A DNA stretch of 64,000 nt from an uncultured Chloroflexia bacterium (lineage in GTDB: Bacteria; Chloroflexota; Limnocylindria; Limnocylindrales; CSP1-4). Below the pieces are notes generated by a model. The model did no database searches. It saw only the letters and a program-made list of their open reading frames with translations, and was not told the origin of the DNA. Position 1 is the stretch's first letter, and each line of letters opens with the position of its first letter. The position numbers and the translations under genes were made by a program. Shown piece after piece: positions 3,309 to 47,759 of this stretch. Location of the stretch: the NCBI GenBank assembly GCA_963789725.1, contig CAWBLU010000003.1, positions 387,170-451,169 of the forward strand, in the 5' to 3' direction.

Positions 3309-3460
3309 TTGACCGCGGGCAGAACGCCGACGGGCAAGTCACCCACGCGAGCGCAATCTCGCCCATCGGCACCGCGTCAGTGGGCTACCTGCCGTACGGC
3401 GATGGGCCGCCTGCGGGCACTCCGTCGGCCGCGACGGCCGTCGGCCGCTATCATCCGCGC

Positions 3461-13520: not shown

Positions 13521-13851
13521 GACGGCGACTCCGGATGGCGCACCGACGCTGGTGTCGTGACGCCCGCCACCAATGTACTACGCATTCGAGGGGCGGTCGG
13601 GCAGGTCCTTCCGGCGGCGCCAGACGCAACCGAGACGCTCGCAATCGCGCCTGGCCGCCCGGTTCGCGTCGGTGTCGTTGGACCCGCCGTCGTGCGGCGG
13701 CCGGCGCCGGAATGGTAATGTCCACACCGCGCCCGGCCGTGGGGCCGCGCCCAGTCCACGAGCCAACCGCCGATCGCGATCTGCCCATCCGAGACGAGCA
13801 TCGGAAGCGGAGCCACGCGATCGGCAGAATTGGGCAGCCGAGAGGAGAGTC

Positions 13852-16302: not shown

Positions 16303-16432
16303 CGGGCCCCGCCCGCGGGAGCCTCGCCCGCGGGAGCCTCGCCCGGATGGGCTTCGTCCGGTAGGATTCGGCCCGCGTCCACTATCGCTACCGCTCGGTC
16401 CCGTTCACTCGGCCGGCTGGGGAGACCACTCG

Positions 16433-23966: not shown

Positions 23967-23970
23967 ATGA
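23890..23970 (+). CDS. carA leader peptide (26 aa, MFVCESNHRAGSAGGFFVRPGTIGAG)
   Basis: ATG is 7 nt after GGAGGAG. The ORF runs through the terminator and its TGA overlaps the carA ATG (ggATGAtg). Confidence 0.5.
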   Translation: MFVCESNHRAGSAGGFFVRPGTIGAG

Positions 23971-28641: not shown

Positions 28642-29670
28642 TCAGCCGTCCCAGCGGACCCGGACGTGCTGCCGGATACCGGGCAGCGGCATCGACGCGG
28701 CCTCCGCCTCCACAGCCGCTCGTTCCGCGGTCGAGAGCCGGCGCCACGACTCGATCGTGACGTTGGTTTGCGCGCGTCGCCACGTCCCGGCAATCTCGCC
28801 GCTCACAAGGACGGCCCCGGGCCAGACTCGGGGCGTCCAGAGCGCGCGACGATTGTCGGGGTCAGGGACCAGCAATTCCCGATCGGCTCCTTGCAGTAGG
28901 AAGTAGGCGTCCCCGCTCGGGAGAAGCCGAGCGAGCGCCGCCGATCCGCCGGGGGCACGGAACGCCGGCTCGTCTTCGGCCAGGATCCATGCGTCGCCGG
29001 CCGGCGTTCGGACCGGCGTCAGCGATTCGCCGAGCGCGGCGAACGCGGCCCGGCCGGCGGCGGCTCTCGGCCTGATCCCGGCCCACTCGGCAAATGCGGC
29101 GGGCGTGGCCGGCCCGAAGATGTGCAGGTAGCGGCGCGCAAGCTCGAGGCGTGCCTGGCGCGGGTCGACGCCCGGTGGCGGCACGGTCCAGATGGCCGGC
29201 TGCCGCGCCCCATCCCACCGGATCAGCACCGTGCCGGTCGGCGCGGCATACCTCAGGCTGTTCGGGTGCACGCCGAGCGCGTGCCCCACTTCGCCGTAGT
29301 TCATCCTTCGACCGTCGAGGAAGCCGTGTAGCCGGAGGGCGAGATCGTCCGCCCGGCGTCGCAATTCGCCGCCTTCGGCGAGCCGCCCGAGCGAGAAGAT
29401 CGCGAGGTCAACCTCGGCGACGACGTAAACGCTCCACCGAGGTCCCCAAACCTGCACGAGCGACGCGTCCTCCCAGGTTTCCGGTCTGGTCCCCTGAACG
29501 CGTGCATGGATCGACAGGACCGCCGCGCGAGGCACGCTGTCCTGCAGCCCCGCCCAGGCCGCCCGTCTGAGCGACACAGGGCCGGGCGGCAACCGCTCGT
29601 CGAGACCACCGACCGATCGTCGGTACCTGAGGATCTGCTCGCGCGTCAACTCGAGCCGGGCCGAGGCCAT
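28642..29670 (-). CDS. winged-helix DUF1006 protein, YcaQ/AlkZ-like (putative DNA glycosylase family)
   Basis: N-terminus LTREQILRYRRSVGGL...AAVLSIHARV and C-terminus LLPSGDAYFLL...RVWPGAVLVSGEIAGTWRR resemble the YcaQ/AlkZ HTH_42 family. The Q-phi-(Q/D) catalytic motif is not clearly conserved (LQD). Confidence 0.5.
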   Translation of the reverse strand: MASARLELTREQILRYRRSVGGLDERLPPGPVSLRRAAWAGLQDSVPRAAVLSIHARVQGTRPETWEDASLVQVWGPRWSVYVVAEVDLAIFSLGRLAEGGELRRRADDLALRLHGFLDGRRMNYGEVGHALGVHPNSLRYAAPTGTVLIRWDGARQPAIWTVPPPGVDPRQARLELARRYLHIFGPATPAAFAEWAGIRPRAAAGRAAFAALGESLTPVRTPAGDAWILAEDEPAFRAPGGSAALARLLPSGDAYFLLQGADRELLVPDPDNRRALWTPRVWPGAVLVSGEIAGTWRRAQTNVTIESWRRLSTAERAAVEAEAASMPLPGIRQHVRVRWDG

Positions 29671-29855: not shown

Positions 29856-30158
29856 ATGAGCGAAGGGGAGGCACCCGCGCGTGTGGGGGTGCGCGAGCTT
29901 CGGCAGAACCTCTCCGTGTATCTGCGGCGCGTGGAGAGAGGGGAGACTCTCGACGTGACCGAACACGGTCGCCTGGTGGCGCGCCTTGCGCCGGCGCCGG
30001 CTCCGGAGGTGAGTATCCTGGACAGGTTGATCGCGGAAGGTCGAGCCACGCCGGCCAGCCGTTCGATCGGCGACCTTCCGGAACCGATCAAACTGGCGCC
30101 GGGCTCTGAGAGCGTCTCGGATGTGCTCCGCCGGATGCGCGAGGAAGAACGCTGGTGA
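29856..30158 (+). CDS. Phd/YefM-family type II antitoxin
   Basis: VGVRELRQNLSVYLRRVERGETLDVTEHGRLVARLAP is a Phd/YefM signature. Stop overlaps the vapC start. Confidence 0.7.
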   Translation: MSEGEAPARVGVRELRQNLSVYLRRVERGETLDVTEHGRLVARLAPAPAPEVSILDRLIAEGRATPASRSIGDLPEPIKLAPGSESVSDVLRRMREEERW

Positions 30159-30556
30159 GCCAGACCTATGTCGACTCGTCGGCCCTCGTGAAGTTGATCG
30201 TCGATGAGCCAGAAACCGATGCGCTGCGGCGGCATATCGCCTCGGCCGGGCCGCTTGCGTCCAGCATTCTCGCAACCGTCGAGGTCTCGCGGGCGGTCGC
30301 TCGGGTCGCGCCTGCATCGATGGCCGAGGTCGCCGCCGTGCTCCAGGCGCTGAACGTTATGGCCTTCGACGCCCGAATCGCCGCCCGCGCAGCCGCGCTG
30401 GGTCCGGCCAGCCTGCGTGCCCTCGATGCCATCCACCTGGCGACGGCTCTCGAGTTGCGGGACGAGCTGACTGCCTTCATCTCCTACGATGAGCGCCTGC
30501 TGGCAGCAGCCCGCGACCTGGGCCTGCCCGTGGTCGCGCCGAGCGGCTACTTGTGA
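30155..30556 (+). CDS. vapC: PIN-domain toxin VapC
   Basis: YVDSSALVKLIVDE ... DAIHLATA ... ISYDERL is a PIN fold with the acidic residues in place. Confidence 0.75.
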   Translation: MSQTYVDSSALVKLIVDEPETDALRRHIASAGPLASSILATVEVSRAVARVAPASMAEVAAVLQALNVMAFDARIAARAAALGPASLRALDAIHLATALELRDELTAFISYDERLLAAARDLGLPVVAPSGYL

Positions 30557-32534: not shown

Positions 32535-32538
32535 ATGA
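32482..32538 (+). CDS. carB leader peptide (18 aa, MRPCKLNHRAREAGGFFV)
   Basis: ATG is 5 nt after GGAGGAG. The TGA overlaps the carB ATG (gtATGAcg). Shares ...NHRA..AGGFFV with the carA leader peptide because both span the same terminator. Confidence 0.5.
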   Translation: MRPCKLNHRAREAGGFFV

Positions 32539-35500
32539 CGGATGAGCCCTTGACACTTCCTGCAACTCAGCCCCTCGTGGCGCCGCGAGCGGAGCGGCGC
32601 AAGCCTGAGAGCGCGCTCATCATCGGTTCGGGGCCGGTCGTGATCGGGCAGGCGGCCGAGTTCGACTACGCCGGCACGCAGGCCTGCCGCGCCCTCCGCG
32701 CCGAGGGCGTCCGAACCATCCTGGTCAACTCGAACCCCGCGACGATCATGACCGACGCGGAGGTGGCCGACGCCGTCTACCTCGAGCCGCTCACCGTCGA
32801 GGCCATCGAGCAGGTCATCGCCAGAGAGCGGCCCGAGGGGCTCCTCGCCGGCCTTGGCGGCCAGACCGGCCTCAACCTGGCCGTGGCCTTGGCCAAGGCC
32901 GGCGTCCTCGACAAGTACAACGTCCGGCTCATCGGAACGCCGCTCGAGGCGATCGAGATGGCCGAGGACCGCGAGCTGTTCCGTGACCTGCTCGACCGGA
33001 TCGGCCAGCCGTACGCGCCCAGCTGCATCGTCGAGGGCGAGACGGATGAGGCGCGCGACAAAGCGGCCAAAGAGGCCCTGGCCGAGATCGGCCTCCCAGC
33101 GATCATCCGGCCGGCGTTTACGCTCGGGGGCACCGGGGGCGGCATCGTCGAGACGGAGGCGGCGTACTGGGAGCGCACCCGCACCGGCCTTCGGCTGAGC
33201 CCGATCAACCAGGTCATGATCGAGCGCTGCCTGGTGGGCTGGCAGGAGATCGAATACGAGGTCATGCGCGACGCGGACGACACCTGCATCGCCGTCTGCT
33301 CGATGGAGAACGTCGACCCGCTGGGCGTCCACACCGGCGACTCGATCGTGGTCGCGCCGGTCCAGACGCTGCCGGACCCGGTCCACCAGCGCCTCCGCAG
33401 TGCCGCGCTCTCGATCATCCGGGCGCTCGGCGTGGAGGGCGGCTGCAACGTCCAGTTCGCGCTTTCGCCGGACTACACCGAATACGCGGTCATCGAGGTC
33501 AACCCGCGCGTCAGCCGATCCTCCGCGCTGGCGAGCAAGGCGACCGGCTACCCGATCGCGCGTGTCGCGGCGCAGATTGCCGCAGGGCGGCGCCTGGCAG
33601 AAATCCCGAACGTAGTGACCGGCACGACGGTCGCGGCTTTCGAACCGGCGCTGGACTACGTCGTCGTCAAGCTGCCCCGCTTCCCGTTCGACAAGTTCCC
33701 CACGGCCGACCGATCGCTGGGCAGCCAGATGAAGGCGACCGGCGAAGTGATGGCGATCGACCGAACGTTTGGGTCGGCGCTGAACAAGGCCTTGCGCGCG
33801 CTCGAACAGGCCGGCGCCGGCTTCCTGGCCGAGAACGCCGCCTGGCGGGCGACGCTCGACTACCTGATGGAGCCCGCGGTAGCCCAGCCGATGGTGACGG
33901 TCGACGGCGGCGGGCTGCTGTGCGAGGCCCGGGCCCATGCCGAACGAGCCGCCTATCCGATCGTCCTCAAGCGGTTCCTGGCCCCATCCGACTCGCGGCT
34001 GTGGCGGATCCTGGCACTGCTGCGGCGCGGCATGCCGGCCGAGCGGATCCGCGGCGTGACCGGCATCTCGGCCTGGTTCCTGCAGGAGTTCGAGCGAGCG
34101 ATCACGCTCGAGCGCGACGTTCGCCGGATGGGCGCGCGCATGACCGATCCACGGGACGAGGAGACGGCCGAACTCCTGGCGACGGTGAAGCGGGCCGGCT
34201 TCGGGGATCGCGAGCTGGCGCAGATGGCCGGCGTGCCGGCCGAGTCGATCCGGCTGGCCCGGATGGAGCTGGGCCTCGTGCCCGGCTACGCGATGGTGGA
34301 CACGTGCGCGGCCGAGTTCGCCGCGGAGACGCCCTACTTCTACGCCACGTACGCCGCGGCCGGCTCGGAGCCGGAACTGCCGCCCGTGGAGCGGCCAGCG
34401 GCGCTGGTGATCGGCAGCGGCCCGGTGCGGATCGGGCAGGGGATCGAGTTCGACTATTGCGCCGTCCAGGCCGCCGCCGAGCTGCGCGCCCAGGGCTGGC
34501 AGGCCGTGATGATCAACTCCAACCCCGAGACGGTCTCGACCGACTTCGACGCCTCGTCACGCCTCTACTTCGAGCCGCTTGATCCCGAAAGCGTCCGTTC
34601 GGTCGTGGAAGCCGAGTCGCCGGCTGGCGCCGACGGCGTTGCCGCGCCGCTGCTCGGCGCATTCGTCCAGTTCGGCGGCCAGACGCCCCTCAACCTGGCC
34701 GAGCCGCTCGCGGCCGCCGGTATCCCGCTCCTGGGCGCGAACCTCGAGACGATCGACCAGGCCGAGGACCGCATCCGCTTCGCGAACCTGGTCGAGTCGC
34801 TCGGCATTCCCCAGCCCGAAGGCGGCATGGCCCGATCGATAGAGGAGGCGCTGGCGCTGGCCGACCAGATCGGCTACCCGGTGATCGTTCGGCCCTCGTT
34901 CGTCATCGGCGGCCTGGCCATCGACTTCAGCTACTCGCCGTCCGATCTCGTAAACCAGCTGGAGCGCGCGACCGTCGTCGATCCCGACCGGCCGGTCCGG
35001 ATCGACCGCTATCTGGAAGGTGTCGAGGTGGACATCGATGCCGTGGCCGACGGCGAGACGGTCCTCATTCCCGGCCTGCTCGAACACGTCGAACGGGCCG
35101 GCGTTCATTCCGGCGACTCGGTCGGGATGTTTCCGCCGCAGACCGTGTCCGTGGCGGACCAGGAGTTGATCGTCGCCGCCATGGACCGCATCGTGCGTGC
35201 CCTCGACGTCCACGGCCTGGTCAACGCCCAGTTCATCGTCCGAGAAGACGGCGTCTACTTGATCGAGGTGAACCCGCGGGCCAGCCGAACCGTGCCGTTC
35301 ATGAGCAAAGTGACCGGCGTGCCGATGGTCAAGCTGGCCGTCCGGATCGCCCTGGGCGAGAAGCTGGCGGACATGGGGTGGGGGAACGGGCTGCTGGCGC
35401 CGCCTCCCCTGGTCGCGGTCAAGGCCCCGGCATTCTCCACGGCCAAGCTGCGCGGCGTGGATCCGTCCGTGGGGCCGGGGATGCAGTCGACCGGCGAGGT

Positions 35501-36035
35501 CATCGGCATCCACCAGGACCCGCGCGTGGCCCTCGCCAAAGCGATGCAGGGCGCCGCGCTGATCCCGCCGCGGCCGGGTGCCGGCGGCGCGCTGGCGCTC
35601 ATCTCCGTCGCGGAACGAGACCACGGGGAGTTGCCGCGAGTGGCCGCCGCCCTGTCTCGCGCCGGCTACCGGTTCGCGGCAACGTCCGGCACCGCGGCCG
35701 AGCTGGCCGCTCTCGGCTTCGCGGCCCAGGTCGTGGCCAAGGTCGGCGAGAAGCCGGTCGACGGCGAGATCCCGATCCTCGACCTGATCGCCGGCGGCAC
35801 CGTCCGGCTCGTGGTAAACACGCCGGCCCCCAAGTCCGGCCCGGTCCGCGACGCCGCGGAGATCCGGCTCGCCGCCACGGCGGAAGGCATCCTGTGCCTG
35901 ACCGCGATTGAGACCGCCGTCGCCGCGGCCGAGGCCCTGGACCCGGACCTGCGGTCGCGCCTGGCCGAAGTTCGTTCCCTGGGCGATTGGGTGCCGGACC
36001 CGGGTGTGCCGCGGCCCGCGCTGAAGCTGAGCTAG
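32535..36035 (+). CDS. carB: carbamoyl-phosphate synthase large subunit
   Basis: Two ATP-grasp halves (ALIIGSGPVVIGQAAEFDYAGTQA...; ALVIGSGPVRIGQGIEFDYCAVQA...), an oligomerisation domain and a C-terminal MGS-like domain. Confidence 0.92.
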   Translation: MTDEPLTLPATQPLVAPRAERRKPESALIIGSGPVVIGQAAEFDYAGTQACRALRAEGVRTILVNSNPATIMTDAEVADAVYLEPLTVEAIEQVIARERPEGLLAGLGGQTGLNLAVALAKAGVLDKYNVRLIGTPLEAIEMAEDRELFRDLLDRIGQPYAPSCIVEGETDEARDKAAKEALAEIGLPAIIRPAFTLGGTGGGIVETEAAYWERTRTGLRLSPINQVMIERCLVGWQEIEYEVMRDADDTCIAVCSMENVDPLGVHTGDSIVVAPVQTLPDPVHQRLRSAALSIIRALGVEGGCNVQFALSPDYTEYAVIEVNPRVSRSSALASKATGYPIARVAAQIAAGRRLAEIPNVVTGTTVAAFEPALDYVVVKLPRFPFDKFPTADRSLGSQMKATGEVMAIDRTFGSALNKALRALEQAGAGFLAENAAWRATLDYLMEPAVAQPMVTVDGGGLLCEARAHAERAAYPIVLKRFLAPSDSRLWRILALLRRGMPAERIRGVTGISAWFLQEFERAITLERDVRRMGARMTDPRDEETAELLATVKRAGFGDRELAQMAGVPAESIRLARMELGLVPGYAMVDTCAAEFAAETPYFYATYAAAGSEPELPPVERPAALVIGSGPVRIGQGIEFDYCAVQAAAELRAQGWQAVMINSNPETVSTDFDASSRLYFEPLDPESVRSVVEAESPAGADGVAAPLLGAFVQFGGQTPLNLAEPLAAAGIPLLGANLETIDQAEDRIRFANLVESLGIPQPEGGMARSIEEALALADQIGYPVIVRPSFVIGGLAIDFSYSPSDLVNQLERATVVDPDRPVRIDRYLEGVEVDIDAVADGETVLIPGLLEHVERAGVHSGDSVGMFPPQTVSVADQELIVAAMDRIVRALDVHGLVNAQFIVREDGVYLIEVNPRASRTVPFMSKVTGVPMVKLAVRIALGEKLADMGWGNGLLAPPPLVAVKAPAFSTAKLRGVDPSVGPGMQSTGEVIGIHQDPRVALAKAMQGAALIPPRPGAGGALALISVAERDHGELPRVAAALSRAGYRFAATSGTAAELAALGFAAQVVAKVGEKPVDGEIPILDLIAGGTVRLVVNTPAPKSGPVRDAAEIRLAATAEGILCLTAIETAVAAAEALDPDLRSRLAEVRSLGDWVPDPGVPRPALKLS

Positions 36036-36175
36036 GCCCGGCAGCACCCCCGCGGGTATCGGCAGGCAGCACAGGAGCCCCGGTAGAGGCGGGAACGCCG
36101 GATGTGCGCGACCCTGCCGGGACCGCGATCGACGGGGCCACCCGCCGAGCTCGGTGACCTCGCGGAGGTGCCCGA

Positions 36176-36841
36176 ATGCTCTTCCCTCGACCAGGCCGCG
36201 CCGCGCCGGCCTCGATCGCACTCCTGGCTCTGCTGGTCGGCGGGTGTGTCGGCGGTCCGGCCACGTCCGTTCCTGCCGGTTCCGCCACTCAGGCCGCGCC
36301 GGCAGACGCGCCGGGCAGTCCCGCGACCGGGTCGGCCTCGGCAGTGGCCGGCGGGTCGGCCACGGCACCTGCCGACGGGTCGGCCTCGGCCGGCGCTCCG
36401 GACTGGTTCGACTTCGAACTCGTGGACGTCGTCACCGGCGAGGCCTTCACCATCAACGACTTCGCGGGCAAGGTGGTGCTCGTCGAAACCATGGCCCAGT
36501 GGTGCCCGACCTGCCGGTCGCAACAGGACGAGGTCGCGAAGCTGCACGGGCTGCTGGGCGCGTCGAGCGACCTCGTCTCGGTCAGCATCGACATCGACCT
36601 CAACGAGGATGCCCCGACACTCAAGGTGTACGCCGCGAAGCAGGGCTACGACTGGCGCATGGCCGTGGCGACAAAGCCGTTGGCTCACGCCCTCGACAGT
36701 GAGTACGGGACGCAGTACCTGAACCCGCCTTCGGCCCCGATGCTGTTCGTGGACCGGAATGGGACCGTCCACACGCTTCGGTTCGGAGTCAAGTCGGCCG
36801 AGGACCTGAGGGCGACCCTGGCTCCATTCCTGGGTTTCTGA
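36176..36841 (+). CDS. TlpA/ResA-like thiol-disulfide oxidoreductase lipoprotein
   Basis: Lipobox LLVGGC, an Ala/Ser/Gly linker, then a thioredoxin fold with WCPTC. Confidence 0.75.
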   Translation: MLFPRPGRAAPASIALLALLVGGCVGGPATSVPAGSATQAAPADAPGSPATGSASAVAGGSATAPADGSASAGAPDWFDFELVDVVTGEAFTINDFAGKVVLVETMAQWCPTCRSQQDEVAKLHGLLGASSDLVSVSIDIDLNEDAPTLKVYAAKQGYDWRMAVATKPLAHALDSEYGTQYLNPPSAPMLFVDRNGTVHTLRFGVKSAEDLRATLAPFLGF

Positions 36842-36934
36842 CGCCGCCCGGAGGCCGCGCCGGCCAAAGGCCGGACCGGCGGCCGTACCCCTGAGCCGCG
36901 GGACAGGACCGTTAACTGCTTCGTCAATACGAGT

Positions 36935-37507
36935 ATGGTGGCACTCGAGGCAGTTGAGAGAGGGGCGGGGCAGGTGCTCGAGAGGGTCGGCGTTGCCAGG
37001 CCGGTCGAAGGCGTCGACGGGACCTTCGAGGATCTTTATCGCCGGCGGTATGGCGACGTCTACCGGTACGTGCTGCTCATGCTCCGGCGTCCCGAGGACG
37101 CCGAGGACGTCACCGGTGAGGCCTTCCATCGAGCCTACGCGGCCTGGGAGTCCGGGCACCGTCCGACCGGCCCGGCACTGCCGTGGTTGCTGCTCATCGC
37201 GCGCCGGCTGGTCATCGACAGGACGCGCCGCCGCAGGCTCATCTCCTGGCTGTCCATCGGCGGCCTGGATCGGGCCAGCGAACCGGCCGCGGCTGAGGAT
37301 ACGGCCCGGACCGAGTTCTGGCTCTGGTTCGATCGCTTCGCCCGCGAGCTGCCGTCGCGGCAGAGAGAGGTCCTGATCTTGCGCTACCAACGCGACCTCG
37401 ACGACGAAGCCATCGGCGAGATCCTGGGGCTTTCGGCCTCGGGCGTCCGCTCCCTGGTCGCCCGCGCCTGCGAGACGCTTCGCCGCAACCCGGAGATCTG
37501 GCGATGA
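36935..37507 (+). CDS. ECF-type RNA polymerase sigma factor
   Basis: Region 2 (FEDLYRRRYGDVYRYVLLMLRRPEDAEDVTGEAF) and region 4 (LPSRQREVLILRYQRDLDDEAIGEILGLSASGVRSLVARA). Confidence 0.8.
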   Translation: MVALEAVERGAGQVLERVGVARPVEGVDGTFEDLYRRRYGDVYRYVLLMLRRPEDAEDVTGEAFHRAYAAWESGHRPTGPALPWLLLIARRLVIDRTRRRRLISWLSIGGLDRASEPAAAEDTARTEFWLWFDRFARELPSRQREVLILRYQRDLDDEAIGEILGLSASGVRSLVARACETLRRNPEIWR

Positions 37508-38835
37508 ACGAGAACTCGATGAATGCCACTCGACCGGCCGACGAGGAGATCCTGGAAGGGATTCGGACCCGGCTGGCCGGGGTGGAACAGTTTGTCAGCA
37601 CACCGCCGGCCTGGCGCTCGGCGGGGACGAAGCTCGGCCTGACGGAGCCGGATCGAATGACCGCGCGTGTGCAGCCGCGCGGGGCCTTCGGCTTTGGGGC
37701 CGCGCTGGCAATCCTGGTCGTGGCAGTGATGGCGGCAGCATCGCTGGGGGTGCTCGGCTCGCGCAATCCGGCCGCCTCGGGCGCGAGTCCCTCCGCGTTG
37801 GTGCCCGTGACCACTGTCGTGTATCAACTGGTGACTCCGGCCGGAGTCGAGCCGACGGCCGCCGAACTCGAAACGACTGTCCAGATCCTGACCAGCAGGG
37901 CCAATTCCACCCAGGCCACGAATGTCCGCGTCACGGCCGAACCGCCAAACCGCGTCAGCGTGACTGTGAGTGGAACAGTGGACATGTCGACGTTGCGGTC
38001 GCTCCTCGGCCAGACCGGCAGGCTCGAGATCGTCCTTCTGCCTCCGGACGTGTACGGAACCGCTGTCGCGCGCGGCGTAAAGGCGGTGCCCGCAACCGGC
38101 GATACGATCGATCCCGCGCTTCCGGCCCAGTTCACCAGCGCCGACATGGATCCGGACCAGTTCGGCGTGGCGCCGGACCCGAGTGCTCCGGACCGCTCGG
38201 TCATCGACTTTGGCTTCAAGCCGGCCGTCGCGACCGAGTTCGCCGACTGGACGGGGCAGCACGTCAACGACTACATCGCTCTCGTGCTGGATGGCGTGGT
38301 TCAGTCCGTGCCATACGTCTTCTCGAGGGTGGACGGCGGCATGGGACAGATTTCGGGCAACTACACGGCCGCGGACGCGGAGACGCTCGTGGCCCTGCTC
38401 CGATACGGCGCGCTGCCCTTCCCGGTGCAGGAAGTCTCCATCGGGACCTCTACGCCGATGCCACAGGCTTCAGTGCCGCTGTCGAGTTCGCCGCTGGTCT
38501 TCGGGCAAACGCCGACCGGCGGCCCCGTCACCGTCATCGACTACCAGCTCGTACCGCCGGATGGCAGCGCGCCTACCAGGGCCGAGCTCGAACAGACGGT
38601 CCTCATGCTCGCCTACCGGATGACTACATTCTTCCCGACGGATTCCCAGCCCAGCGCGTCCGGACAGGTCCTGCCCGACTTGAGCGCCGTGCAGGGGTTC
38701 TCGGTCACAGGCGTCCTTCCCGACCAGGTCATCGTTCGCTACGAAGCCGACGTCAAGACAGACTCGGCCGGCCGTTCGGCATGGATGTCGCGGCGATCCG
38801 GGCCTGGCTGCCCAGGGCCGGCCGCGTCTCCCTGA
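37504..38835 (+). CDS. putative anti-sigma factor: single-pass membrane protein with extracytoplasmic SecD-P1-like repeats (N-terminal part of a possibly frameshifted gene)
   Basis: Start overlaps the sigma gene stop (ATGA). Short cytoplasmic N-terminus, a TM helix (AALAILVVAVMAAASLGVLG), then two repeat units with SecD periplasmic-domain-like motifs (LGQTGRLEIVLLP; YIALVLDGVVQSVPYV...GQISGNYTAADAETLVALLRYGALPFPVQEVSIGTS). The last roughly 20 codons look out of frame. Confidence 0.55.
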   Translation: MNENSMNATRPADEEILEGIRTRLAGVEQFVSTPPAWRSAGTKLGLTEPDRMTARVQPRGAFGFGAALAILVVAVMAAASLGVLGSRNPAASGASPSALVPVTTVVYQLVTPAGVEPTAAELETTVQILTSRANSTQATNVRVTAEPPNRVSVTVSGTVDMSTLRSLLGQTGRLEIVLLPPDVYGTAVARGVKAVPATGDTIDPALPAQFTSADMDPDQFGVAPDPSAPDRSVIDFGFKPAVATEFADWTGQHVNDYIALVLDGVVQSVPYVFSRVDGGMGQISGNYTAADAETLVALLRYGALPFPVQEVSIGTSTPMPQASVPLSSSPLVFGQTPTGGPVTVIDYQLVPPDGSAPTRAELEQTVLMLAYRMTTFFPTDSQPSASGQVLPDLSAVQGFSVTGVLPDQVIVRYEADVKTDSAGRSAWMSRRSGPGCPGPAASP

Positions 38836-39500
38836 TCGACTTGACGATGCTGGGTTATGGCCGCGTGGGTGTGACGGGGGAGCGGCCCCTGCCGACTCGC
38901 GGGGATCCGGTGGATCCGTCAGCGCCGGTGATAACCGGCTCGGATGTAGCGTCCTTCGGAGTCGCCTCGGACGGTCTGGTCGGGACGGTGAGGATGGACT
39001 TCACACAGTCGGGCTCCGAGAAGATGGCCAGTTACTCAAATGCCAGTGCCGGCCACTACGTGGCGCTGACCCTCGACGGGATCGTCCTGGCCACGACGGC
39101 TATGGACGGCCAGGGCAGGTACGGGACGCTGCAAATGACGGTCTCCGTCGATGACGTCGCCGGCCTCAACTGGCTGGGCGAGGACGGCAATTCGCCGCTG
39201 CCGGAGCCGCTTGCGGAAAGGAGCTACTCAACCGCTGTCTCGCCCGCATCACCCGCCCCGAGTGGCCCGACCGTCGCGCCGACTCCGCGCCTCGATCCTA
39301 CCCCTGTCCCTGCGACGCCCGACGCCGCCGGCACCTTCATCGTCTACGTGGTGAAAGCGGGAGACACGCTGAGCGCGATCGCGGCCAGGTTCAACGTCTC
39401 ACTGCCAAGCCTGGAGGCGGCGAACCCGCAACTCGAGACCAGCGACTTGATCTTGGTCGGATCGATCGTGAACATCCCCCCGCCCCGACCGGTTCCCTAG
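38781..39500 (+). CDS. SecD-P1-like plus C-terminal LysM domain protein (probable C-terminal part of the anti-sigma gene)
   Basis: HYVALTLDGIVLATTAMDGQGRYGTLQMT is a third SecD-head-like unit. The C-terminus YVVKAGDTLSAIAARFNVSLPSLEAANPQL...GSIVNIP is a LysM domain. No signal peptide of its own; overlaps the previous ORF by 55 nt in another frame. Confidence 0.5.
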   Translation: MDVAAIRAWLPRAGRVSLIDLTMLGYGRVGVTGERPLPTRGDPVDPSAPVITGSDVASFGVASDGLVGTVRMDFTQSGSEKMASYSNASAGHYVALTLDGIVLATTAMDGQGRYGTLQMTVSVDDVAGLNWLGEDGNSPLPEPLAERSYSTAVSPASPAPSGPTVAPTPRLDPTPVPATPDAAGTFIVYVVKAGDTLSAIAARFNVSLPSLEAANPQLETSDLILVGSIVNIPPPRPVP

Positions 39501-39567
39501 ATCGTCTACCCGGTTGCACGGGGCGGCAAATCGCGGAACATCCCTACCGGCGGGAACGCGGGCGGTT

Positions 39568-40170
39568 ATGGTTCGTGGCGTGCATAAGCTGAGATCACGC
39601 CTCTCCCCCGCGGCCGGACTGCTGGTCGCCGCCGTTGCCCTCGCCGGCTGCTCTTCGTCCGCCGGCTCACCTGCGCCCAGCAGCACGTACTTCGACCCGA
39701 TTCCGGTCGTGGCGGCGCCGACGATGCCGTCGTGGTTCGCCGTCAAGATGACCGACGTCAACACGGGCAAGCAGTTCAGCATCAGCGACTTCACGGGCAA
39801 GGTCGTTCTGATAGACACGATGGCCACGTGGTGCCCGACCTGCCAGGGCGAGATGAGCGAGATCCAGCTTCTGCCGACGCTCTACCCGAGCGGCACCGAC
39901 CTGGTGAGGATCAGCCTGGACGTCGATCCGAACGAGGACGCGACGATCCTCAAGAAGTACGCGGACGCGAACAAGTTCGACTGGTACATCGCCATCGCCC
40001 CGATCGAGGTAGGCCGGTTCCTCGAGGTCAATTACGACGAGCGCTACCTCAACCCGCCGCTCCAGCCGATGCTCTTCATCGACCGCGCGGGCGGCGTATA
40101 CGGGCTCCCGTTCGGCGCCAAGTCGGCCATCAGCCTCCAGAAGACACTGGCTCAATACCTCGGGCAGTAG
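39568..40170 (+). CDS. TlpA/ResA-like thiol-disulfide oxidoreductase lipoprotein, paralog 2
   Basis: Lipobox ALAGCSSS and WCPTC; overall 40-45% identical to the 36176 gene. ATG at 39568 was chosen inside the longer ORF. Confidence 0.75.
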   Translation: MVRGVHKLRSRLSPAAGLLVAAVALAGCSSSAGSPAPSSTYFDPIPVVAAPTMPSWFAVKMTDVNTGKQFSISDFTGKVVLIDTMATWCPTCQGEMSEIQLLPTLYPSGTDLVRISLDVDPNEDATILKKYADANKFDWYIAIAPIEVGRFLEVNYDERYLNPPLQPMLFIDRAGGVYGLPFGAKSAISLQKTLAQYLGQ

Positions 40171-40174
40171 CGCC

Positions 40175-40843
40175 ATGGATGTCGCCCTGACGTCGTTCGG
40201 GTTCGGGCTGCTGGCCACGACCAGCCCATGTCTGCTGCCGCTCTACCCCGGGTTCCTGGCGTATCTGAGCGGCCAGGCCGGGTCCGATCGGGGCCGCGCG
40301 CACTACTTCCTCGGCGTGTACGTCCTCGCCGGCGTCCTGACGGCGATGCTCGTCCTGGGCGCCGTGATCGCGGCCATGTCCGTGTCGATCGGGCGGGTCC
40401 TGGCGATCCTCATTCCGGTGGCGATCGTCGTGATCCTGATCCTGGGAGTGCTGATGTTGACGAACCGCAACCCGTTCTACCGGCTGCCCCAGATCAAAGT
40501 TCCGTTGCTGCGCCGCCCGTCCCTGAACGCCTACGTCTACGGGTTGCTGTACGGCCCGATCGCGATGCCCTGCTCGGGCCCGCTCGTGGTGGCCGTCTTC
40601 GTCTACTCGTTCACCGTGGCCGAGGCCGTCGGCAAGCTCTGGGTGTTCCTGTGGTTCGGGCTCGGGTTCGGCGTCCCGCTCCTGGCGATCTCGTTGCTGT
40701 CGGGCGCCGTCCAGCGCGACCTGACCCGCTGGTTCGCCCGCCACAGCCGGGCCATCAACGTCGTCGGCGGCGTGCTTCTGATCGCCATCGCGATCTACGA
40801 CCTGGCGGAGAACTGGAACATGCTGGTTCTCTACTACTCCTGA
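40175..40843 (+). CDS. ccdA: cytochrome c-type biogenesis / thiol-disulfide transporter CcdA (DsbD-family membrane protein)
   Basis: TSPCLLPLYPGFLAYL and YGPIAMPCSGPLVVAVF, the two conserved Cys-containing TM segments of CcdA/DsbD. Confidence 0.8.
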   Translation: MDVALTSFGFGLLATTSPCLLPLYPGFLAYLSGQAGSDRGRAHYFLGVYVLAGVLTAMLVLGAVIAAMSVSIGRVLAILIPVAIVVILILGVLMLTNRNPFYRLPQIKVPLLRRPSLNAYVYGLLYGPIAMPCSGPLVVAVFVYSFTVAEAVGKLWVFLWFGLGFGVPLLAISLLSGAVQRDLTRWFARHSRAINVVGGVLLIAIAIYDLAENWNMLVLYYS

Positions 40844-40852
40844 CCGACGCGC

Positions 40853-42184
40853 TCAGGCGTGCTCGAGCAGGCTGACCGGCGACTCCGCGGGGGCCGGGGC
40901 GGGCTCCCCCGACCCGGGCTCGGCTGCGGCTCGCGCGTCCTCGTCGGTGTGGCGGAACCACTTCCACAGAAGTGCCGTGCCGATGCTGTAGAGCACGATG
41001 ATCGTCACGAAGTCGACGGCGTAGCCCGCATCGAAGCCGAGGCCGGCCTGGAGCGTTCCGTAGTAGATCGGCGCGATGGTCCAGCCGAGGGACCACAGCA
41101 GCGTCATCAACGCCGACAGGACGGCTCGTTCCCGGGCCGAGACTCTCTCCATCGCGAACGCGTCGAAGATCGGACTGCCGGCGTTCATCAGCGAGTTTCG
41201 AACGGCCAGGGCGATGATCACCGACCAGAGCATCGGCGAGAAGCCCAGGACGACCAGGAATGGAATGCTCGCTCCCTGGACGAGGACGATCGAGCCTATC
41301 CGTCCGAAGCGGCGAGCCAGAGCCGGCTGCATCATGATCGCGAGCGCGGTGCCGAGGCTGGTGATGGCAAAGACCGCGTTGAGCGACGCCAGGTCCAGGC
41401 CGAACTTCTTCTGGATGAAGAGGTTGAGGAAGGGGATCAGCTGGCCGGCGCCGAGGGACGTGATGAAGCCCGGCAGAAGGAGCTTGAAGAACAGGCCCGG
41501 GTTCGAAATATGCATTCCGAACCGGCCCGAAGGGTGAAGTTCTCTGGCCCGTTCGGCCGCGAGCGACTGGCGGTCGTCGCCCAACCGGAGCACGGTCAAG
41601 AGACCGGCCAGGCTCAGGATCGTGATCAGGACGAGAACCACCAGGTACGGCCCCGCTGCGGTGGTCAGGCCGAGCGGACCCGCCAGGTTTTGGGCGATCG
41701 CTCCGCCGAGCAACGTCGCGACGACTCCCGTCGTGAAGCTCAGGGCATTCCATGTGGCGAAGAACTCGTTGCGCTGATCCGGCCTCGTGTGCTCGGCGAT
41801 GTAGGGGATCTGGACGACGCTCACGATCTGGAACCCGGCCCCGAAGGCGATCACTCCCACGAAGATGAGCGGGAGGTAGCCCGGCATGAAGGCGATGAGC
41901 GCCACGGACACTAGAACCACGCCCGCGGCCATGACGGACCGCCGACCCACTCGATTGGAGATGGCGCTGGCCGGCAGCGCGACCACGACCCCCGCCAGCT
42001 GTGACACGGCCATCAGCCAGCCGATCGTCGGCCGGTCGACGCCGATGGCTTCCAGGTACAGGTTGAAGTCGATCCAGTAGAGGCTGATGGCAGCGCCGAA
42101 GACGATCGTGGTTAGGAGAAATCGGCGCGCGTCCGTGCCGAAGCCGGTGAAGCTGTGGATGTAGCGGAGCAGGGCGCCTTTCAC
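40853..42184 (-). CDS. MFS transporter
   Basis: Twelve hydrophobic segments, and an MFS motif-A-like NRVGRRSVM between TM2 and TM3. Confidence 0.75.
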   Translation of the reverse strand: MKGALLRYIHSFTGFGTDARRFLLTTIVFGAAISLYWIDFNLYLEAIGVDRPTIGWLMAVSQLAGVVVALPASAISNRVGRRSVMAAGVVLVSVALIAFMPGYLPLIFVGVIAFGAGFQIVSVVQIPYIAEHTRPDQRNEFFATWNALSFTTGVVATLLGGAIAQNLAGPLGLTTAAGPYLVVLVLITILSLAGLLTVLRLGDDRQSLAAERARELHPSGRFGMHISNPGLFFKLLLPGFITSLGAGQLIPFLNLFIQKKFGLDLASLNAVFAITSLGTALAIMMQPALARRFGRIGSIVLVQGASIPFLVVLGFSPMLWSVIIALAVRNSLMNAGSPIFDAFAMERVSARERAVLSALMTLLWSLGWTIAPIYYGTLQAGLGFDAGYAVDFVTIIVLYSIGTALLWKWFRHTDEDARAAAEPGSGEPAPAPAESPVSLLEHA

Positions 42185-44022: not shown

Positions 44023-44259
44023 CTATCCTAGTTCCTCTAACGTCTGTTAGATGAAAGACTAACATGCCGACGAGCCGTGGTCAACGCGTGTTCCGGGTTG
44101 CGTGGGAGGGGTGGCGGGCGGATTGACGCGCATTGTGACTCGCGGGCACGAGAGGGCGGCAGGGCCCTCGACGCCCGTGGGAAGCGCGGCCCGTACAATG
44201 CGGACACGGCGGCGACGGCCGCCGGTGCAACGCCGCGTCCCTGGAGGAGTATCGACCGC

Positions 44260-45573
44260 ATGACCGCCCCGAGCGTCACGTTCACCGACGAGCGCCTCGC
44301 CAACGGCCTTCGCCTGATCATCTCGGAAGACCATCTCGCACCCGTCGTGGCGGTCAACATCTGGTACAACGTCGGTTCCAAGCACGAGGTGCCGGGCAAG
44401 ACCGGGTTCGCGCACCTGTTCGAACACGTCATGTTCCAGGGCTCGGGCCACGTCGCCAAGACCGAGCACATGGCCCTCGTCCAGGCCGCCGGCGGGACGA
44501 TGAACGGCACGACCTTCCTGGACCGGACCAACTACTTCGAGACGGTGCCGAGCCACCAGCTGGAGCTCGCGCTCTGGCTCGAGGCGGACCGGATGGCCAC
44601 GCTCTTGAGCGCTCTGAACCAGGAGAACCTGGACAACCAGCGCAGCGTGGTCAAGAACGAGAAGCGCTCCTCCTACGACAACCGACCCTACGGCTCGTGG
44701 TTTCACAAGCTGCAGGAGCACGTCTTCCCGCCGGATCACCCGTACCACCATCCCACTATCGGGTCGATGGAGGATCTCGACGCGGCCTCACTCGAGGACG
44801 TGGCCTCGTTCTTTCGGACCTACTACGCGCCGAACAACGCGGTGCTGTCGGTCGTCGGCGACGTCGAGCCGGCCCAGGTTCGGACCTGGGCCGAGCGCTA
44901 CTTCGGGGCCATTCCGGCGAACACGGCCATCCCGCGGCTCGGGGACGTGTCGCTTCCGTCGACGCTCGGGGCCGAGAAGCGCGAGGTCGTCGAGGACCGC
45001 GTTCCTCTGCCGCGCCACTTCTTTGCCTTCCGGGCCCCGGTCCTGGGCGATCCTCGCTTCGACGCGCTGGAAGTCGCTTCCCAGATTCTCGCCGGGGGCA
45101 AGGGCAGCCGGCTCTATCGGCGTCTGGTCCGCGAGGAAAGGCTGGCCCAGGACGTTTCGTTCTTCTCGCTCGGTCTCGTCGGCGGGGCATCGATAGCTGC
45201 CGGGCAGGCGACGGTCCGGCCGGGCGTCGATCCGGCGGCCGTCGAGGCCGCATTCGAGGAGGAACTCGAGCGTCTCGGCCGGGAGCCGGTCACCGACGAC
45301 GAACTGGCCCGAGCCCGGGCCCTGATCGAGACCTACGAACTGGAGGCCCTCCAGAGGGTCGACGAGCGAGCCGACCGGCTCTCCAGCTACGCGACGCTGC
45401 TCGACGACCCTGACATGATCAATCGCCAGCTGGGCCGCTATCTGGCGGTCGGCGCAGCCGAGATCCAGGCCGTGGCCGCGGAGGTCCTGCGGCCCGACAA
45501 CCGGGTCGTTCTGACTTACGTGCCGGCGTCCCAATCCGCCGGTGCCGGCCACGATGAGGAGCCCACGGCATGA
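44260..45573 (+). CDS. M16-family zinc peptidase (pitrilysin/insulinase-like, active subunit)
   Basis: Inverted zinc-binding motif HLFEH (HxxEH) near the N-terminus. ATG at 44260 follows GGAGGAG. Confidence 0.8.
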   Translation: MTAPSVTFTDERLANGLRLIISEDHLAPVVAVNIWYNVGSKHEVPGKTGFAHLFEHVMFQGSGHVAKTEHMALVQAAGGTMNGTTFLDRTNYFETVPSHQLELALWLEADRMATLLSALNQENLDNQRSVVKNEKRSSYDNRPYGSWFHKLQEHVFPPDHPYHHPTIGSMEDLDAASLEDVASFFRTYYAPNNAVLSVVGDVEPAQVRTWAERYFGAIPANTAIPRLGDVSLPSTLGAEKREVVEDRVPLPRHFFAFRAPVLGDPRFDALEVASQILAGGKGSRLYRRLVREERLAQDVSFFSLGLVGGASIAAGQATVRPGVDPAAVEAAFEEELERLGREPVTDDELARARALIETYELEALQRVDERADRLSSYATLLDDPDMINRQLGRYLAVGAAEIQAVAAEVLRPDNRVVLTYVPASQSAGAGHDEEPTA

Positions 45574-47024
45574 CACTCGAGGAAATGCTGAGGTCGCGGC
45601 CGTCGCCGGGACAGCCCCGCGGATACGAGTTCCCGGGGTTCCAGCGCACGGTCCTGCCCTCGGGCCTTCAGGTTCTCGCGGTGGACGTTCCGGGGCGGCC
45701 GCTCGTTTCGGCGAACCTGGTCATCCGGCGGGGCGCCGCCGAGGAGCCGGCCGAGGCCGCCGGCGCGACCGTGATGGCCGCCCGGGCGATGACGGAAGGT
45801 ACCGAGCGCTATCCGGGCGTCGAACTGACTGAGGCCGGCGAGCGTCTCGGCGCCACTCTCCATGTGGATGCCAACTGGGATGCCTTCAACGTGTCCGTCG
45901 ACGTCGTGGCCGGCCGTCTGGGCGCGGCGCTCGAATTGCTGGCCGAACTGGCACTCCGGCCGACGTTTCCCTCAGCGGACGTCGAGCGGCTGCGCGACGA
46001 ACGTCTGAACGACCTGCTTCAGGTCAAGGCCGATCCGCGCCGGCGGGTCGACCAGGCATTCACCGCGACCATATACGCCCCGGATTCGCCCTACGCGCGG
46101 CCCGCGGGCGGCAATGAAGAAACGGTTCCGCGGCTTACGTCCGACGTCCTGCGAACCGCGCACGGCGAGATCCTGGACCCGACCCGGGCCGCTCTGGTGG
46201 TGGGCGGCGACCTGGCCGGACTCGACGTCCCGAAGCTGGTCGAGGCTGTGCTCGGGTCGTGGGACGCCCCGTCCTCTGGCGCCGCTGGAGCCGCTCGGGG
46301 GCGTGCTCCGGAGCCGCCCGCCGACTCGGCCGTGGACCACCCCATCGTCCGCTTCTATCACCGCCCCGGCTCGGTTCAGACGGAACTGCGGATCGGTCAC
46401 GTCGGCCTGTCGCGGCGGGCGCCGGACTTCCACGCCGTCCAGGTCATGGCGGCGATTCTCGGCGGCCTCTTCAACTCCCGCCTGCAGATGAACCTGCGCG
46501 AGGCGAAGGGCTACACCTACGGCATCGGGGCCGGGTTCGAAATGCGCCGCGGCCGCGGGCCGTTCTCGGTCCGGACCGCGGTCCAGACGCCCTCCACCGT
46601 CCCGTCCATCACCGAGTCGCTGTCCGAACTGCGTCGCATCCGTGAGACGCCGGTTACCCGAACGGAACTGGAGGCGGCCCGGGACTACCTGGTCGGAGTC
46701 TTCCCGCTCAGGTTCGAGACACCCGGCGCCGTCGTCGGTGCCCTCGGCGGCATCTTCGTCCACGAGCTTCCCGACGACGAGCTGGCCCGCTACCGGCAAG
46801 AGGTCGAGGCGGTGACCATCGATGCGGTCCAGAAGGCGGCACAGGACCACATCCATCCCGAACGTATCGCCATCGTCGCCATCGGAGATGCCGACGCCGT
46901 TGCCGCCGATCTGGAGTCGGCCGGCTTCGGCGAGTTGCAGGTGATCGCCGAGGAGGTCCCCGCCGAAACCGACGCGGCCGAGGAGACAGAGCTGGTCGAG
47001 GGGCCCGAGGAGGGGAGCGAGTGA
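45570..47024 (+). CDS. M16-family peptidase, non-catalytic partner subunit
   Basis: M16 fold without HxxEH. Start overlaps the upstream stop (ATGA). Confidence 0.7.
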   Translation: MTLEEMLRSRPSPGQPRGYEFPGFQRTVLPSGLQVLAVDVPGRPLVSANLVIRRGAAEEPAEAAGATVMAARAMTEGTERYPGVELTEAGERLGATLHVDANWDAFNVSVDVVAGRLGAALELLAELALRPTFPSADVERLRDERLNDLLQVKADPRRRVDQAFTATIYAPDSPYARPAGGNEETVPRLTSDVLRTAHGEILDPTRAALVVGGDLAGLDVPKLVEAVLGSWDAPSSGAAGAARGRAPEPPADSAVDHPIVRFYHRPGSVQTELRIGHVGLSRRAPDFHAVQVMAAILGGLFNSRLQMNLREAKGYTYGIGAGFEMRRGRGPFSVRTAVQTPSTVPSITESLSELRRIRETPVTRTELEAARDYLVGVFPLRFETPGAVVGALGGIFVHELPDDELARYRQEVEAVTIDAVQKAAQDHIHPERIAIVAIGDADAVAADLESAGFGELQVIAEEVPAETDAAEETELVEGPEEGSE

Positions 47025-47677
47025 TCGTCGTCATCGGTCTGCCCGCCTATGCGGATTCGCCCGAGGGCGAGAAATGCGCCGGCGGGCTCGCCGTGGAAGT
47101 CGCTGCCGCTGCCAGGGGCCGGGGCAGCGCAGTGGAGCTGGTCGGCAAGGTCGGCAACGACGGCGCCGGGGACGCGGTCGTAGTTGCCCTGGGTCGCCTG
47201 GGCATCGGCCACGCCGCCCTGCTGCGCGACCCGATACGGCCAACCCCGGTTCTTGCGCCGCCCGTCACGGAAGACGATGCCGCCGAACTGGACGCGGAGG
47301 GCGCCGAGGCACGGCTCCTGCCCGAAGATCCCGAGGCGAGGCCCGCCCTCGAAGCCGCCGACGTAGAGCTGGCTCTCAAGTTCCTGCCGGCTGCCGGCGT
47401 CGTCGTCATCGCCGATCCACTGTCCGAGGCCACGACCGCGGCCGGGGTGGACGGAGCGGCGTATGCCGCGGCAAGGCTGATCGTGCTCGTGGCGGCCGGC
47501 TCTACCCCCCCGCCGGTCCCGGCCGGAGCCACGGTGCTGGAGGCCCCGCAGGCCGACGACGGCTCGTTCGGGCGGCTTGTCGGCGTCTTCGCCGGCGCGC
47601 TGGACGCCGGGCTGGAGCCGCAGGCCGCCTTCGGCGAAGCCGTCGCCGCGGCCGGTTGGGAGCCCGCAGCGGATTAG
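47021..47677 (+). CDS. PfkB/ribokinase-like domain protein (truncated, degenerate)
   Basis: N-terminus MIVVIGLPAY...GGLAVEVAAAARGRGSAVELVGKVGNDGAGD resembles the ribokinase N-terminal region. Lacks the C-terminal DTxGAGD ATP-binding motif. GTG start overlaps the upstream stop. Confidence 0.4.
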   Translation: MIVVIGLPAYADSPEGEKCAGGLAVEVAAAARGRGSAVELVGKVGNDGAGDAVVVALGRLGIGHAALLRDPIRPTPVLAPPVTEDDAAELDAEGAEARLLPEDPEARPALEAADVELALKFLPAAGVVVIADPLSEATTAAGVDGAAYAAARLIVLVAAGSTPPPVPAGATVLEAPQADDGSFGRLVGVFAGALDAGLEPQAAFGEAVAAAGWEPAAD

Positions 47678-47759
47678 TCGGCGGGTGCTCACCCGTTGCG
47701 TCGCATGGCGAGGCCCCGCGGGCCACGGCGAAGGACTCGCTTCCTGTAGAGTGCGGGCT

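Follow-up and report, generated by a model that had tools for sequence, protein, structure and literature searches.

Anti-sigma factors that control sigma factors of the extracytoplasmic function (ECF) type are known to sense envelope damage, ligands or redox state, and they do so with a limited set of ectodomains. ECF promoters have a recognizable form, in which the -35 element is GGAAC-like and the -10 element is CGTC. In the RseA/sigmaE (DegS), RsiW/sigmaW and RsiV/sigmaV systems, a single-pass membrane protein with its N-terminus in the cytoplasm is encoded after an autoregulated ECF sigma gene, is co-transcribed with it, and carries an ectodomain that can plausibly bind a ligand or unfolded protein. 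In these systems regulated proteolysis sets the sigma factor free; DegS senses unfolded outer-membrane proteins, and RsiV is a receptor that binds a ligand. Here, we describe a locus of this general scheme, built from different parts, in a 64,000-nucleotide stretch (hereafter the window) from an uncultured Chloroflexia bacterium of the Limnocylindrales (GenBank assembly GCA_963789725.1, contig CAWBLU010000003.1, positions 387,170 to 451,169). An ECF sigma gene is followed by the gene for a membrane protein, here called the partner, whose ectodomain, once a frameshift in the deposited sequence is repaired, is made up of two SecD P1 modules, both complete, and a LysM domain; genes for two TlpA-like lipoproteins and for CcdA lie on either side of the pair. 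The partner thus joins an undescribed ectodomain to an unrecognised cytoplasmic module on the membrane partner of an ECF sigma factor, and its distribution is restricted to Candidatus Limnocylindrales (Chloroflexota). Limnocylindria are an abundant uncultured lineage of soil, peat and fresh water.

The closest described systems resemble this locus only in part. Unlike RseA, RsiW and RsiV, the partner has a short tail that matches no class I (zf-HC2/RsrA-like) or class II anti-sigma domain, and whereas sensing for RseA is performed by the PDZ domain of a separate protein, DegS, together with RseB, the putative sensor here is built into the candidate anti-sigma factor itself. SecDF interacts with unfolded protein through its periplasmic region, and the P1 head's cavity has been proposed to catch emerging precursors (PMC5974789). 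Both P1 modules of the partner have the full fold, base plus head, of SecD/SecDF P1 from Thermus thermophilus (3AQO/3AQP) and Deinococcus radiodurans (5XAM); however, they stand on one transmembrane helix with a cytoplasmic tail, are translationally coupled to a sigma gene, and are accompanied by neither the 6-helix RND-type SecD_SecF domain nor a SecF/P4 partner nor a proton pathway. The sole transmembrane helix and the lack of any PF02355 or PF03176 match in Pfam likewise set the partner apart from SecD and SecDF proper. A DsbD_TM-type CcdA beside a membrane-anchored CxxC thioredoxin is the classical pairing of the CcdA-ResA/TlpA reductant pathway, but the window has two TlpA paralogs, both of which fall far short of the equivalog cut-offs; the pair is joined to an ECF sigma operon, and client genes of the ResB/ResC, Sco or Msr kinds are absent nearby. 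Finally, about half of the partner family has, after P1, a domain of the membrane-anchored DsbA/BdbD-type oxidoreductases (Thioredoxin_4/DSBA) with its CxxC intact, whereas the partner in the window has neither a DsbA domain nor any cysteine.

A conserved sigma gene with its own promoter

The five genes lie on the plus strand in the order TlpA1, ECF sigma, membrane partner, TlpA2 and CcdA and span 36176-40843, as a first reading made from the letters alone (the sequence-only reading) had them. Six plus-strand open reading frames (ORFs) follow carB (32535-36035), at 36176-36841, 36935-37507, 37504-38835, 38781-39500, from 39514, and at 40175-40843. That reading had also seen that the start of the membrane-protein gene overlaps the sigma stop codon: the partner ATG does so as ATGA, and the same overlap occurs in 11 of 11 intact orthologous loci and in a divergent member of the family, P0072, at locus L045. 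At all orthologous loci examined, in many metagenome-assembled genomes (MAGs), the order is fixed, with carB, the sigma gene and the partner gene followed by MFS and ArsR genes on the opposite strand. The MAGs carrying these related loci are named Candidatus Limnocylindrales, Chloroflexi or Chloroflexia. Adjacency to an ECF sigma gene that is conserved across genomes, as found here, is a mark by which anti-sigma genes are recognised.

The sigma factor scores 73.6 bits against the ECF superfamily model TIGR02937 (cut-off 42.9; NCBIfam) and has regions 2 and 4, which places it among the ECF (group 4) sigma-70 factors in the general sense. It fits no named ECF subfamily among those tested (SigE-fam_strep, BldN, SigW, SigM and others), all NCBIfam equivalogs being far below their cut-offs; the best of them was SigE-fam_strep (TIGR02983), at 90.5 bits against a cut-off of 141.55. 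SigW and SigL are the nearest solved structures. At least 120 protein clusters are 65-82% identical to it; the matches listed are all orthologs at 65% or more and so provide no outgroup for a comparison of partners. The sigma factor is strongly conserved, and identity among the partners falls to about 30%. Before region 2, the sigma factor has an N-terminal extension of about 30 residues (36935-37030 in the window) with a (V/L)LE(R/L)VG motif that is kept across orthologs; this extension could be a regulatory or pro-sequence element. Source gene callers often choose a sigma start 39 nt downstream, giving a 177-aa product.

The element GGGAC-N16-TCGTCAAT precedes the sigma gene, with the same spacing, in every orthologous locus examined (15 loci and the window). 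In the window its -10 element stops 9 nt short of the sigma ATG, and across loci this interval is 6-10 nt, so the sigma mRNA is probably leaderless or nearly so. Upstream of the element the flanks vary by locus and may be the tail of carB, of TlpA1 or of CcdA. An ECF-type promoter that keeps a fixed distance despite such differing flanks implies autoregulation, and we infer that the sigma factor recognises this element. Within the 64 kb it is the sole match to a position weight matrix (PWM) that is over-fitted to the orthologous sequence, and scans of the window and related loci with regular expressions and with the PWM found no further sigma-type promoters beyond the sigma gene's own.

Two SecD P1 modules and a LysM domain in the partner

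Table 1. Features of the locus, with supporting matches (E-values unless bits are given). Positions are those of the window except where a related locus is named.
Feature	Position	Strand	Basis
TlpA1, TlpA/ResA-like lipoprotein	36176..36841	+	WCPTC, lipobox VGGC; Redoxin 6.9e-09, AhpC-TSA above cut-off (Pfam)
ECF-type promoter	36900..36925	+	-35 GGGAC 36900-36904, 16-nt spacer, -10 TCGTC 36921-36925
ECF sigma factor	36935..37507	+	190 aa; Sigma70_r2 2.2e-12, Sigma70_r4 1.4e-10 (Pfam)
Partner, cytoplasmic N-terminal tail (aa 1-60)	37504..37683	+	motif D13-x3-L17-x5-R23-x4-E28-x5-PP-x-W37
Partner, single transmembrane helix (aa 61-85)	37684..37758	+	hydrophobic stretch; Arg51, Arg55, Arg59 before it
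Partner, P1a, complete SecD P1 module, base and head (aa 101-318)	37804..38457	+	SecDF_P1_head 1.5e-16, SecD_1st 2e-4 (Pfam)
Partner, P1b, more divergent second P1 module	38515..39230	+	N-terminal part in frame of 37504, rest in frame of 38781
Partner, frameshift site	38765..38772	+	one base missing in G run (GCC-GGCC) relative to intact homologs
Partner, C-terminal LysM (peptidoglycan-binding fold)	39345..39479	+	Pfam 5.1e-11, 42.8 bits, cut-off 20.9
TlpA2, TlpA/ResA-like lipoprotein	39568..40170	+	WCPTC, lipobox LAGC; Redoxin 1.5e-08, AhpC-TSA (Pfam)
CcdA, DsbD-type transmembrane thiol-reductant transporter	40175..40843	+	DsbD_TM PF02683 9.6e-13, 48.4 bits, cut-off 27.1
Cys-pair motif of related partners	L014 about 9080-9194, L017 about 3240-3356, L019 about 8930-9053		

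The partner begins with a cytoplasmic tail whose motif (Table 1) is kept among relatives down to 30% overall identity. Since three arginines precede the transmembrane helix, the positive-inside rule predicts a single-pass protein with its N-terminus in the cytoplasm, and an AlphaFold2 model of the homolog P0001 has a helix at residues 69-82. Beyond the helix, the evidence for P1a comes from several comparisons. Only residues 105-312 match the SecD model TIGR01129, at 1.2e-25 (90.5 bits, far below its cut-off of 244.4), and in phmmer searches of the PDB residues 109-312 span the whole of SecDF P1, both in 5xam (7.9e-13) and in the isolated P1 structure 3aqo (4.6e-11). The P0001 model has a predicted local distance difference test (pLDDT) score of about 78-95 in P1a, mostly 65-85 in P1b except for short low-confidence loops, and 63-79 in the LysM domain. 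Its best Foldseek match in the PDB is SecDF P1 (3aqo_C, E-value 2.5e-15, target-normalised template-modelling score 0.80), followed by full-length SecDF, and its LysM domain gives Foldseek matches at probability 1.0.

P1b is 29-33% identical to P1a over about 200-245 residues (BLASTP, 1e-13 to 2e-24); its Pfam match to SecDF_P1_head, obtained with the 239-aa ORF that encodes most of it, is 3e-4 and below the cut-off. When the second repeat of the homolog P0002 was modeled alone (pLDDT 81.9), Foldseek returned 5xap at 3.3e-11 and 3aqo_C with a template-modelling score of 0.63. SecDF P1 is the first structural match of both modules. We regard the architecture described here as all but certain. 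The sequence-only reading had recognised the short cytoplasmic N-terminus and the single helix, here a 60-residue tail with an inferred topology, and the likeness to SecD P1 that it noted is strong, although the three P1-like segments it counted correspond to three Pfam hits, which together form two modules, each complete with base and head. The terminal LysM domain that it named is above the Pfam cut-off but, like most of the second P1, lies in another frame.

A family with a constant core and a variable C-terminus

A profile of the tail and transmembrane helix retrieved only 60 clusters from 1.84 billion representative proteins. Among 52 of these relatives scanned with Pfam, SecDF_P1_head was found in 39, a DSBA/Thioredoxin_4 domain in 24 and LysM in 5. 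The tail, the transmembrane helix and one P1 module form a common core in nearly every complete member that was read or scanned, and what follows this core is variable: besides the P1-P1-LysM arrangement of the window, we read P1-P1, P1-P1-DsbA, P1-DsbA, P1-DsbA-LysM and P1-LysM, as well as P1 followed by a propeller-like domain or by a low-complexity tail. DsbA is the commonest C-terminal addition, and its CxxC is intact in every DsbA-type sequence read. A DsbA domain fused to SecD P1 and to a sigma-coupled tail is not known as a described architecture.

Several individual members illustrate this range. P0072 (776 aa; L045 1015-3345) has a sigma-coupled tail followed by P1-P1-DsbA, and P0073 (673 aa) has the same kind of tail, one P1 and then beta-propeller-like repeats (W-x-S-x-DG-x-x-W). 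In the subgroup of L014, L017 and L019, in which P1 is followed by a low-complexity tail, the partners end in a Cys-pair motif, CSIVPS-x10-14-CG-x2-PL-x-SGSVPSAAAT; this Cys pair might be sensitive to redox state or might mimic a substrate. Members of the family are named “SecD”, “protein-disulfide isomerase” or “hypothetical” in source databases; P0105, a P1-DsbA protein in the cluster of P0011, is called “protein-export membrane protein SecD”, an annotation transferred from a single domain.

The P1 module derives from the lineage's own SecD. P1a is 44-47% identical over about 210 residues to SecD from genomes of the same lineage, and SecD of other phyla gives 26-33% identity or head-only matches. 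It also shares with own-lineage SecD the motifs VLLPP..YG, IDPxLPAQFTG and WTGQHVNDYFA(I/L)VLDG. Because it is closest to that SecD and has these lineage-specific motifs in common with it, we take the module to be a duplicate of the lineage's SecD P1 domain. A normal SecD-SecF pair is present elsewhere in the same genomes (both genes were verified in L020). A further non-SecD protein, P0021/P0023 (L046 4490-5896), from metagenome contigs, consists of a zinc-ribbon N-terminus, a transmembrane helix, a P1 module and an unknown C-terminal domain, and has no adjoining sigma gene; co-option of P1 has therefore happened more than once.

A frameshift in the window's copy of the partner gene

In the sequence as deposited, the partner is not one ORF. 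Three-frame translations give two, in different frames, at 37504-38835 (443 aa) and 38781-39500 (239 aa), so that the LysM domain is out of frame with the N-terminal part; the sequence-only reading took the two for a single protein and overlooked the frameshift. A DNA alignment with two intact relatives has a single 1-nt gap in the window, at 38769/38770. With the joined protein as query, the intact 661-aa homologs P0001 and P0002 are 70% identical over 100% of its length, and the protein alignment with intact homologs runs straight across the junction. The 239-aa ORF has no signal peptide, and its start, DVAAIRAWLPRAGRVSLIDL, matches a segment inside the first repeat, DMSTLRSLLGQTGRLEIVLL. 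Programmed frameshifting was considered and rejected, as there is no slippery heptamer at the site.

The 720 nt past the break form an open frame with high GC at third codon positions (GC3), are 57-63% identical to homologs and contain no second lesion. The break therefore stems from an error in the assembly or from a mutation that is very recent. In the latter case the window's copy would be a recent pseudogene: the deletion would be real, the protein would stop at residue 443 and so lack the P1b head as well as LysM, and signaling would be altered or lost, whatever the truth about the other explanations discussed below. The deposited sequence does contain the frameshift, and the 443-aa product (P0003) is the one given in the source annotation. 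Further, the other genes of the window that were scanned have ordinary Pfam matches and none is obviously split, so the background error rate of the window looks low. Against this stand the position of the missing base in a G run, the intact state of the downstream frame, and the many frameshifts in related long-read MAGs of the same collections. We think a real mutation less likely than not. As broken, the 443-aa product retains the tail, the transmembrane helix and P1a, and is near the minimal form seen in relatives. In the related long-read MAGs, several loci have multiple frameshifts in genes that are essential, affecting carB at L005 2863-6361, L018 2194-5606 and L031 2611-6011, and the sigma gene at L014 7428-8001.

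The TlpA/CcdA genes as an accessory cassette

The two TlpA paralogs and CcdA that the sequence-only reading had named are borne out by domain matches: TlpA1 and TlpA2 are Redoxin/TlpA-like proteins with WCPTC and are 48% identical to each other, and CcdA matches DsbD_TM above the Pfam cut-off. Both TlpA-like proteins are below the cut-offs of the TlpA, ResA and DsbE NCBIfam equivalog models, and both show the features of a membrane-anchored thioredoxin fold with CxxC, namely the Redoxin match, WCPTC and a signal peptide with a lipobox; PDB matches of TlpA2 include TlpA (1jfu) and ResA. TlpA2 most likely starts at ATG 39568, which is followed by the lipobox signal peptide, although the ORF is open from TTG 39514, and the gap after the partner stop is therefore 67 nt rather than 13 nt. 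CcdA begins 4 nt past the TlpA2 stop and has two PC motifs (SPCLLP and MPCSGP). Neither sigma-70 promoter nor terminator matches were found within 35900-41100. Given the common strand, the gaps of 67 and 4 nt and these negative scans, TlpA2 and CcdA probably belong to the sigma operon of the window and are likely to be transcribed from the sigma promoter.

The distribution of these genes is patchy. TlpA1 lies upstream of the sigma promoter and was found in the window only, with no counterpart in the related loci L001-L019. Orthologs of TlpA2 are found at the corresponding place in L008 (75% identity) and, in L014 and L017, upstream of the sigma gene (64%); CcdA accompanies them in all three. 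The TlpA-CcdA cassette is thus downstream of the partner in the window and L008, upstream of sigma in L014/L017, and absent elsewhere; because most orthologous loci are without it, it is accessory and not a conserved output of the sigma factor. One may ask, then, whether TlpA1, TlpA2 and CcdA have any functional link to the sigma pair, or are a cassette, of the cytochrome c maturation or of a general reductant kind, that was inserted by chance. The variable position and frequent absence of the cassette, the confinement of TlpA1 to the window, and the lack of a sigma promoter copy near TlpA1 or upstream of the L014 cassette all speak for chance insertion. However, the cassette has been joined to the sigma locus in three genomes and in two positions, it was seen only with partners that lack DsbA (3 of about 9 such genomes, compared with none of 5 of the DsbA type, which are small numbers), TlpA2-CcdA would be read from the sigma promoter in the window, and no ResB/ResC or cytochrome c genes were found in the 64 kb. 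On balance, we consider an insertion without functional meaning doubtful.

What the partner may do and sense

From its context and conservation, the partner is probably the anti-sigma factor of the adjoining sigma factor. The model that we favor, at slightly better than even, is of an autoregulated sigma/anti-sigma pair whose signal is unfolded exported protein and which has a link to thiol-redox folding. The conserved cytoplasmic tail would keep the sigma factor inactive, P1 would bind unfolded polypeptide as it leaves the Sec channel, as proposed for SecD, and LysM would tether the C-terminus of the partner to the cell wall. An excess of unfolded or wrongly oxidised exported protein would lead to loss of the anti-sigma factor, probably by regulated proteolysis, and the freed sigma factor would transcribe its own operon and so increase the amount of the P1 protein, itself a membrane-tethered DsbA in about half of the relatives; in the genome of the window it would also raise the TlpA2/CcdA reductant pathway. 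The nature of the signal, unfolded or mis-oxidised exported protein, is a more tentative part of the proposal, and one that we put somewhat below even. More doubtful still is a fuller version in which P1, sitting at the Sec exit, captures nascent exported chains and passes them to the fused DsbA of many members, while the same molecule holds the sigma factor, such that export load is converted into transcription of a foldase/redox operon. The sequence-only reading had proposed a thiol-redox circuit controlling reductant delivery. A redox connection is supported by the 24 of 52 relatives with a CxxC DsbA and by the cassette in three genomes, but the TlpA/CcdA genes turn out to be accessory and the ectodomain of the window has no cysteine.

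Several observations weigh against the favored model. Residues 1-100 gave no Pfam or NCBIfam match at E-values up to 0.1, and a profile of the tail searched against the PDB found no anti-sigma chain at E-values up to 10, only chance-level matches. The conserved part of the tail is only about 28 residues long and is modeled by AlphaFold2 with low confidence; class I anti-sigma domains average 101 residues (PMC7406223). No protease or cleavage site was identified for the partner. The ectodomain in the window, as read from the translations, is free of cysteine and so cannot itself act as a thiol switch, a direct form of which we rejected for this reason. DsbA is an oxidant and TlpA/CcdA a reductant pathway, hence the two are not equivalent partners; moreover, TlpA/CcdA is absent from most orthologous loci, its L014/L017 copies lie upstream of the sigma promoter, and the regular-expression and PWM scans found no second copy of that promoter upstream of TlpA1. 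Lastly, the partner gene is possibly broken in this very genome.

Some of the same evidence would fit a partner that is no anti-sigma factor but the first member of the regulon, a membrane-anchored foldase or holdase using P1 for capture and, in many relatives, DsbA for catalysis, with the sigma factor controlled in some other way, for instance through its conserved N-terminal extension, which could itself be regulatory. The unmatched tail, the apparently catalytic DsbA domain in nearly half of the family, and the database names “protein-disulfide isomerase” and “SecD” are in keeping with such a role. We think this unlikely, though, since strict conservation of a cytoplasmic motif points, for a single-pass protein, to a partner in the cytoplasm, the sigma and membrane-protein genes are coupled through ATGA without exception, the conserved locus has no other candidate regulator, and enzymatic and anti-sigma roles are in any case compatible. 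Quite improbable is a cell-wall sensor, an option raised by the sequence-only reading, in which LysM bound to peptidoglycan or its released fragments is the input that controls sigma: members of the window's clade, and some of the DsbA type, do end in a good-scoring LysM, and ECF systems that sense the cell wall are well known, but LysM lies out of frame in the deposited sequence, is missing from same-locus orthologs (P0006, P0008, P0011, P0013 and those of L013-L019), and occurs in only 5 of the 52 representative relatives, so cell-wall binding is not a conserved input.

Novelty and implications

In the papers searched, we found no description of an anti-sigma factor with a SecD P1 domain, in agreement with the suspicion of the sequence-only reading that the combination was not a described anti-sigma architecture. 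SecD and DsbA are absent from the main text of the ECF re-classification paper, as is Chloroflexi, and from that of the paper on class I anti-sigma factors. If the favored model of a sigma/anti-sigma pair is correct, the tail is a new kind of anti-sigma binding module, and the pair embodies a new sensing principle in which an anti-sigma factor reads the output of the translocon by means of a translocon-derived domain. P1 would then be a portable module for binding unfolded protein outside SecDF, which would bear on the debated role of P1 within SecDF, and Limnocylindria would have a direct regulatory link among protein export, disulfide chemistry and transcription. On the practical side, databases at present list these proteins under the names given above, and the copy in the window is annotated as a truncated 443-aa product.

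Other genes of the window

Downstream of the locus, a pair of M16 peptidase genes (44077-47024), a 218-aa ORF of unknown function (47021-47677) and the gene for a TPR-rhomboid protease (47577-49103) are in conserved synteny with the sigma locus in L001, L003 and L005. As an intramembrane protease, the TPR-rhomboid protein might, speculatively, be what cleaves the single-pass partner. An antisense ORF of 153 aa with high GC3 (41076-41537, plus strand), located inside the MFS gene (40853-42184, minus strand), is most likely a compositional artefact of a high-GC antisense frame and not a gene.

Upstream, carA (23967-25229) and carB (32535-36035) are separated by about 7 kb that hold a GH5 cellulase-like gene, an AlkZ-like glycosylase gene (28642-29670, minus strand) and a PIN-domain toxin gene (30155-30556); toxin-antitoxin genes (PhdYeFM, PIN, TacA) are found at the same spot in relatives too. 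Two tandem GH94 paralogs (glycoside phosphorylases of the cellobiose/chitobiose phosphorylase type), an ORF of unknown function and an SMP-30/gluconolactonase-like gene occupy 13573-18832. Farther upstream, the minus strand encodes a very large hybrid histidine kinase of 1788 aa (4934-10300), which combines several PAS and GAF domains with HisKA/HATPase_c and a receiver domain, and, near it, a PAS-GGDEF protein (12600-13520).

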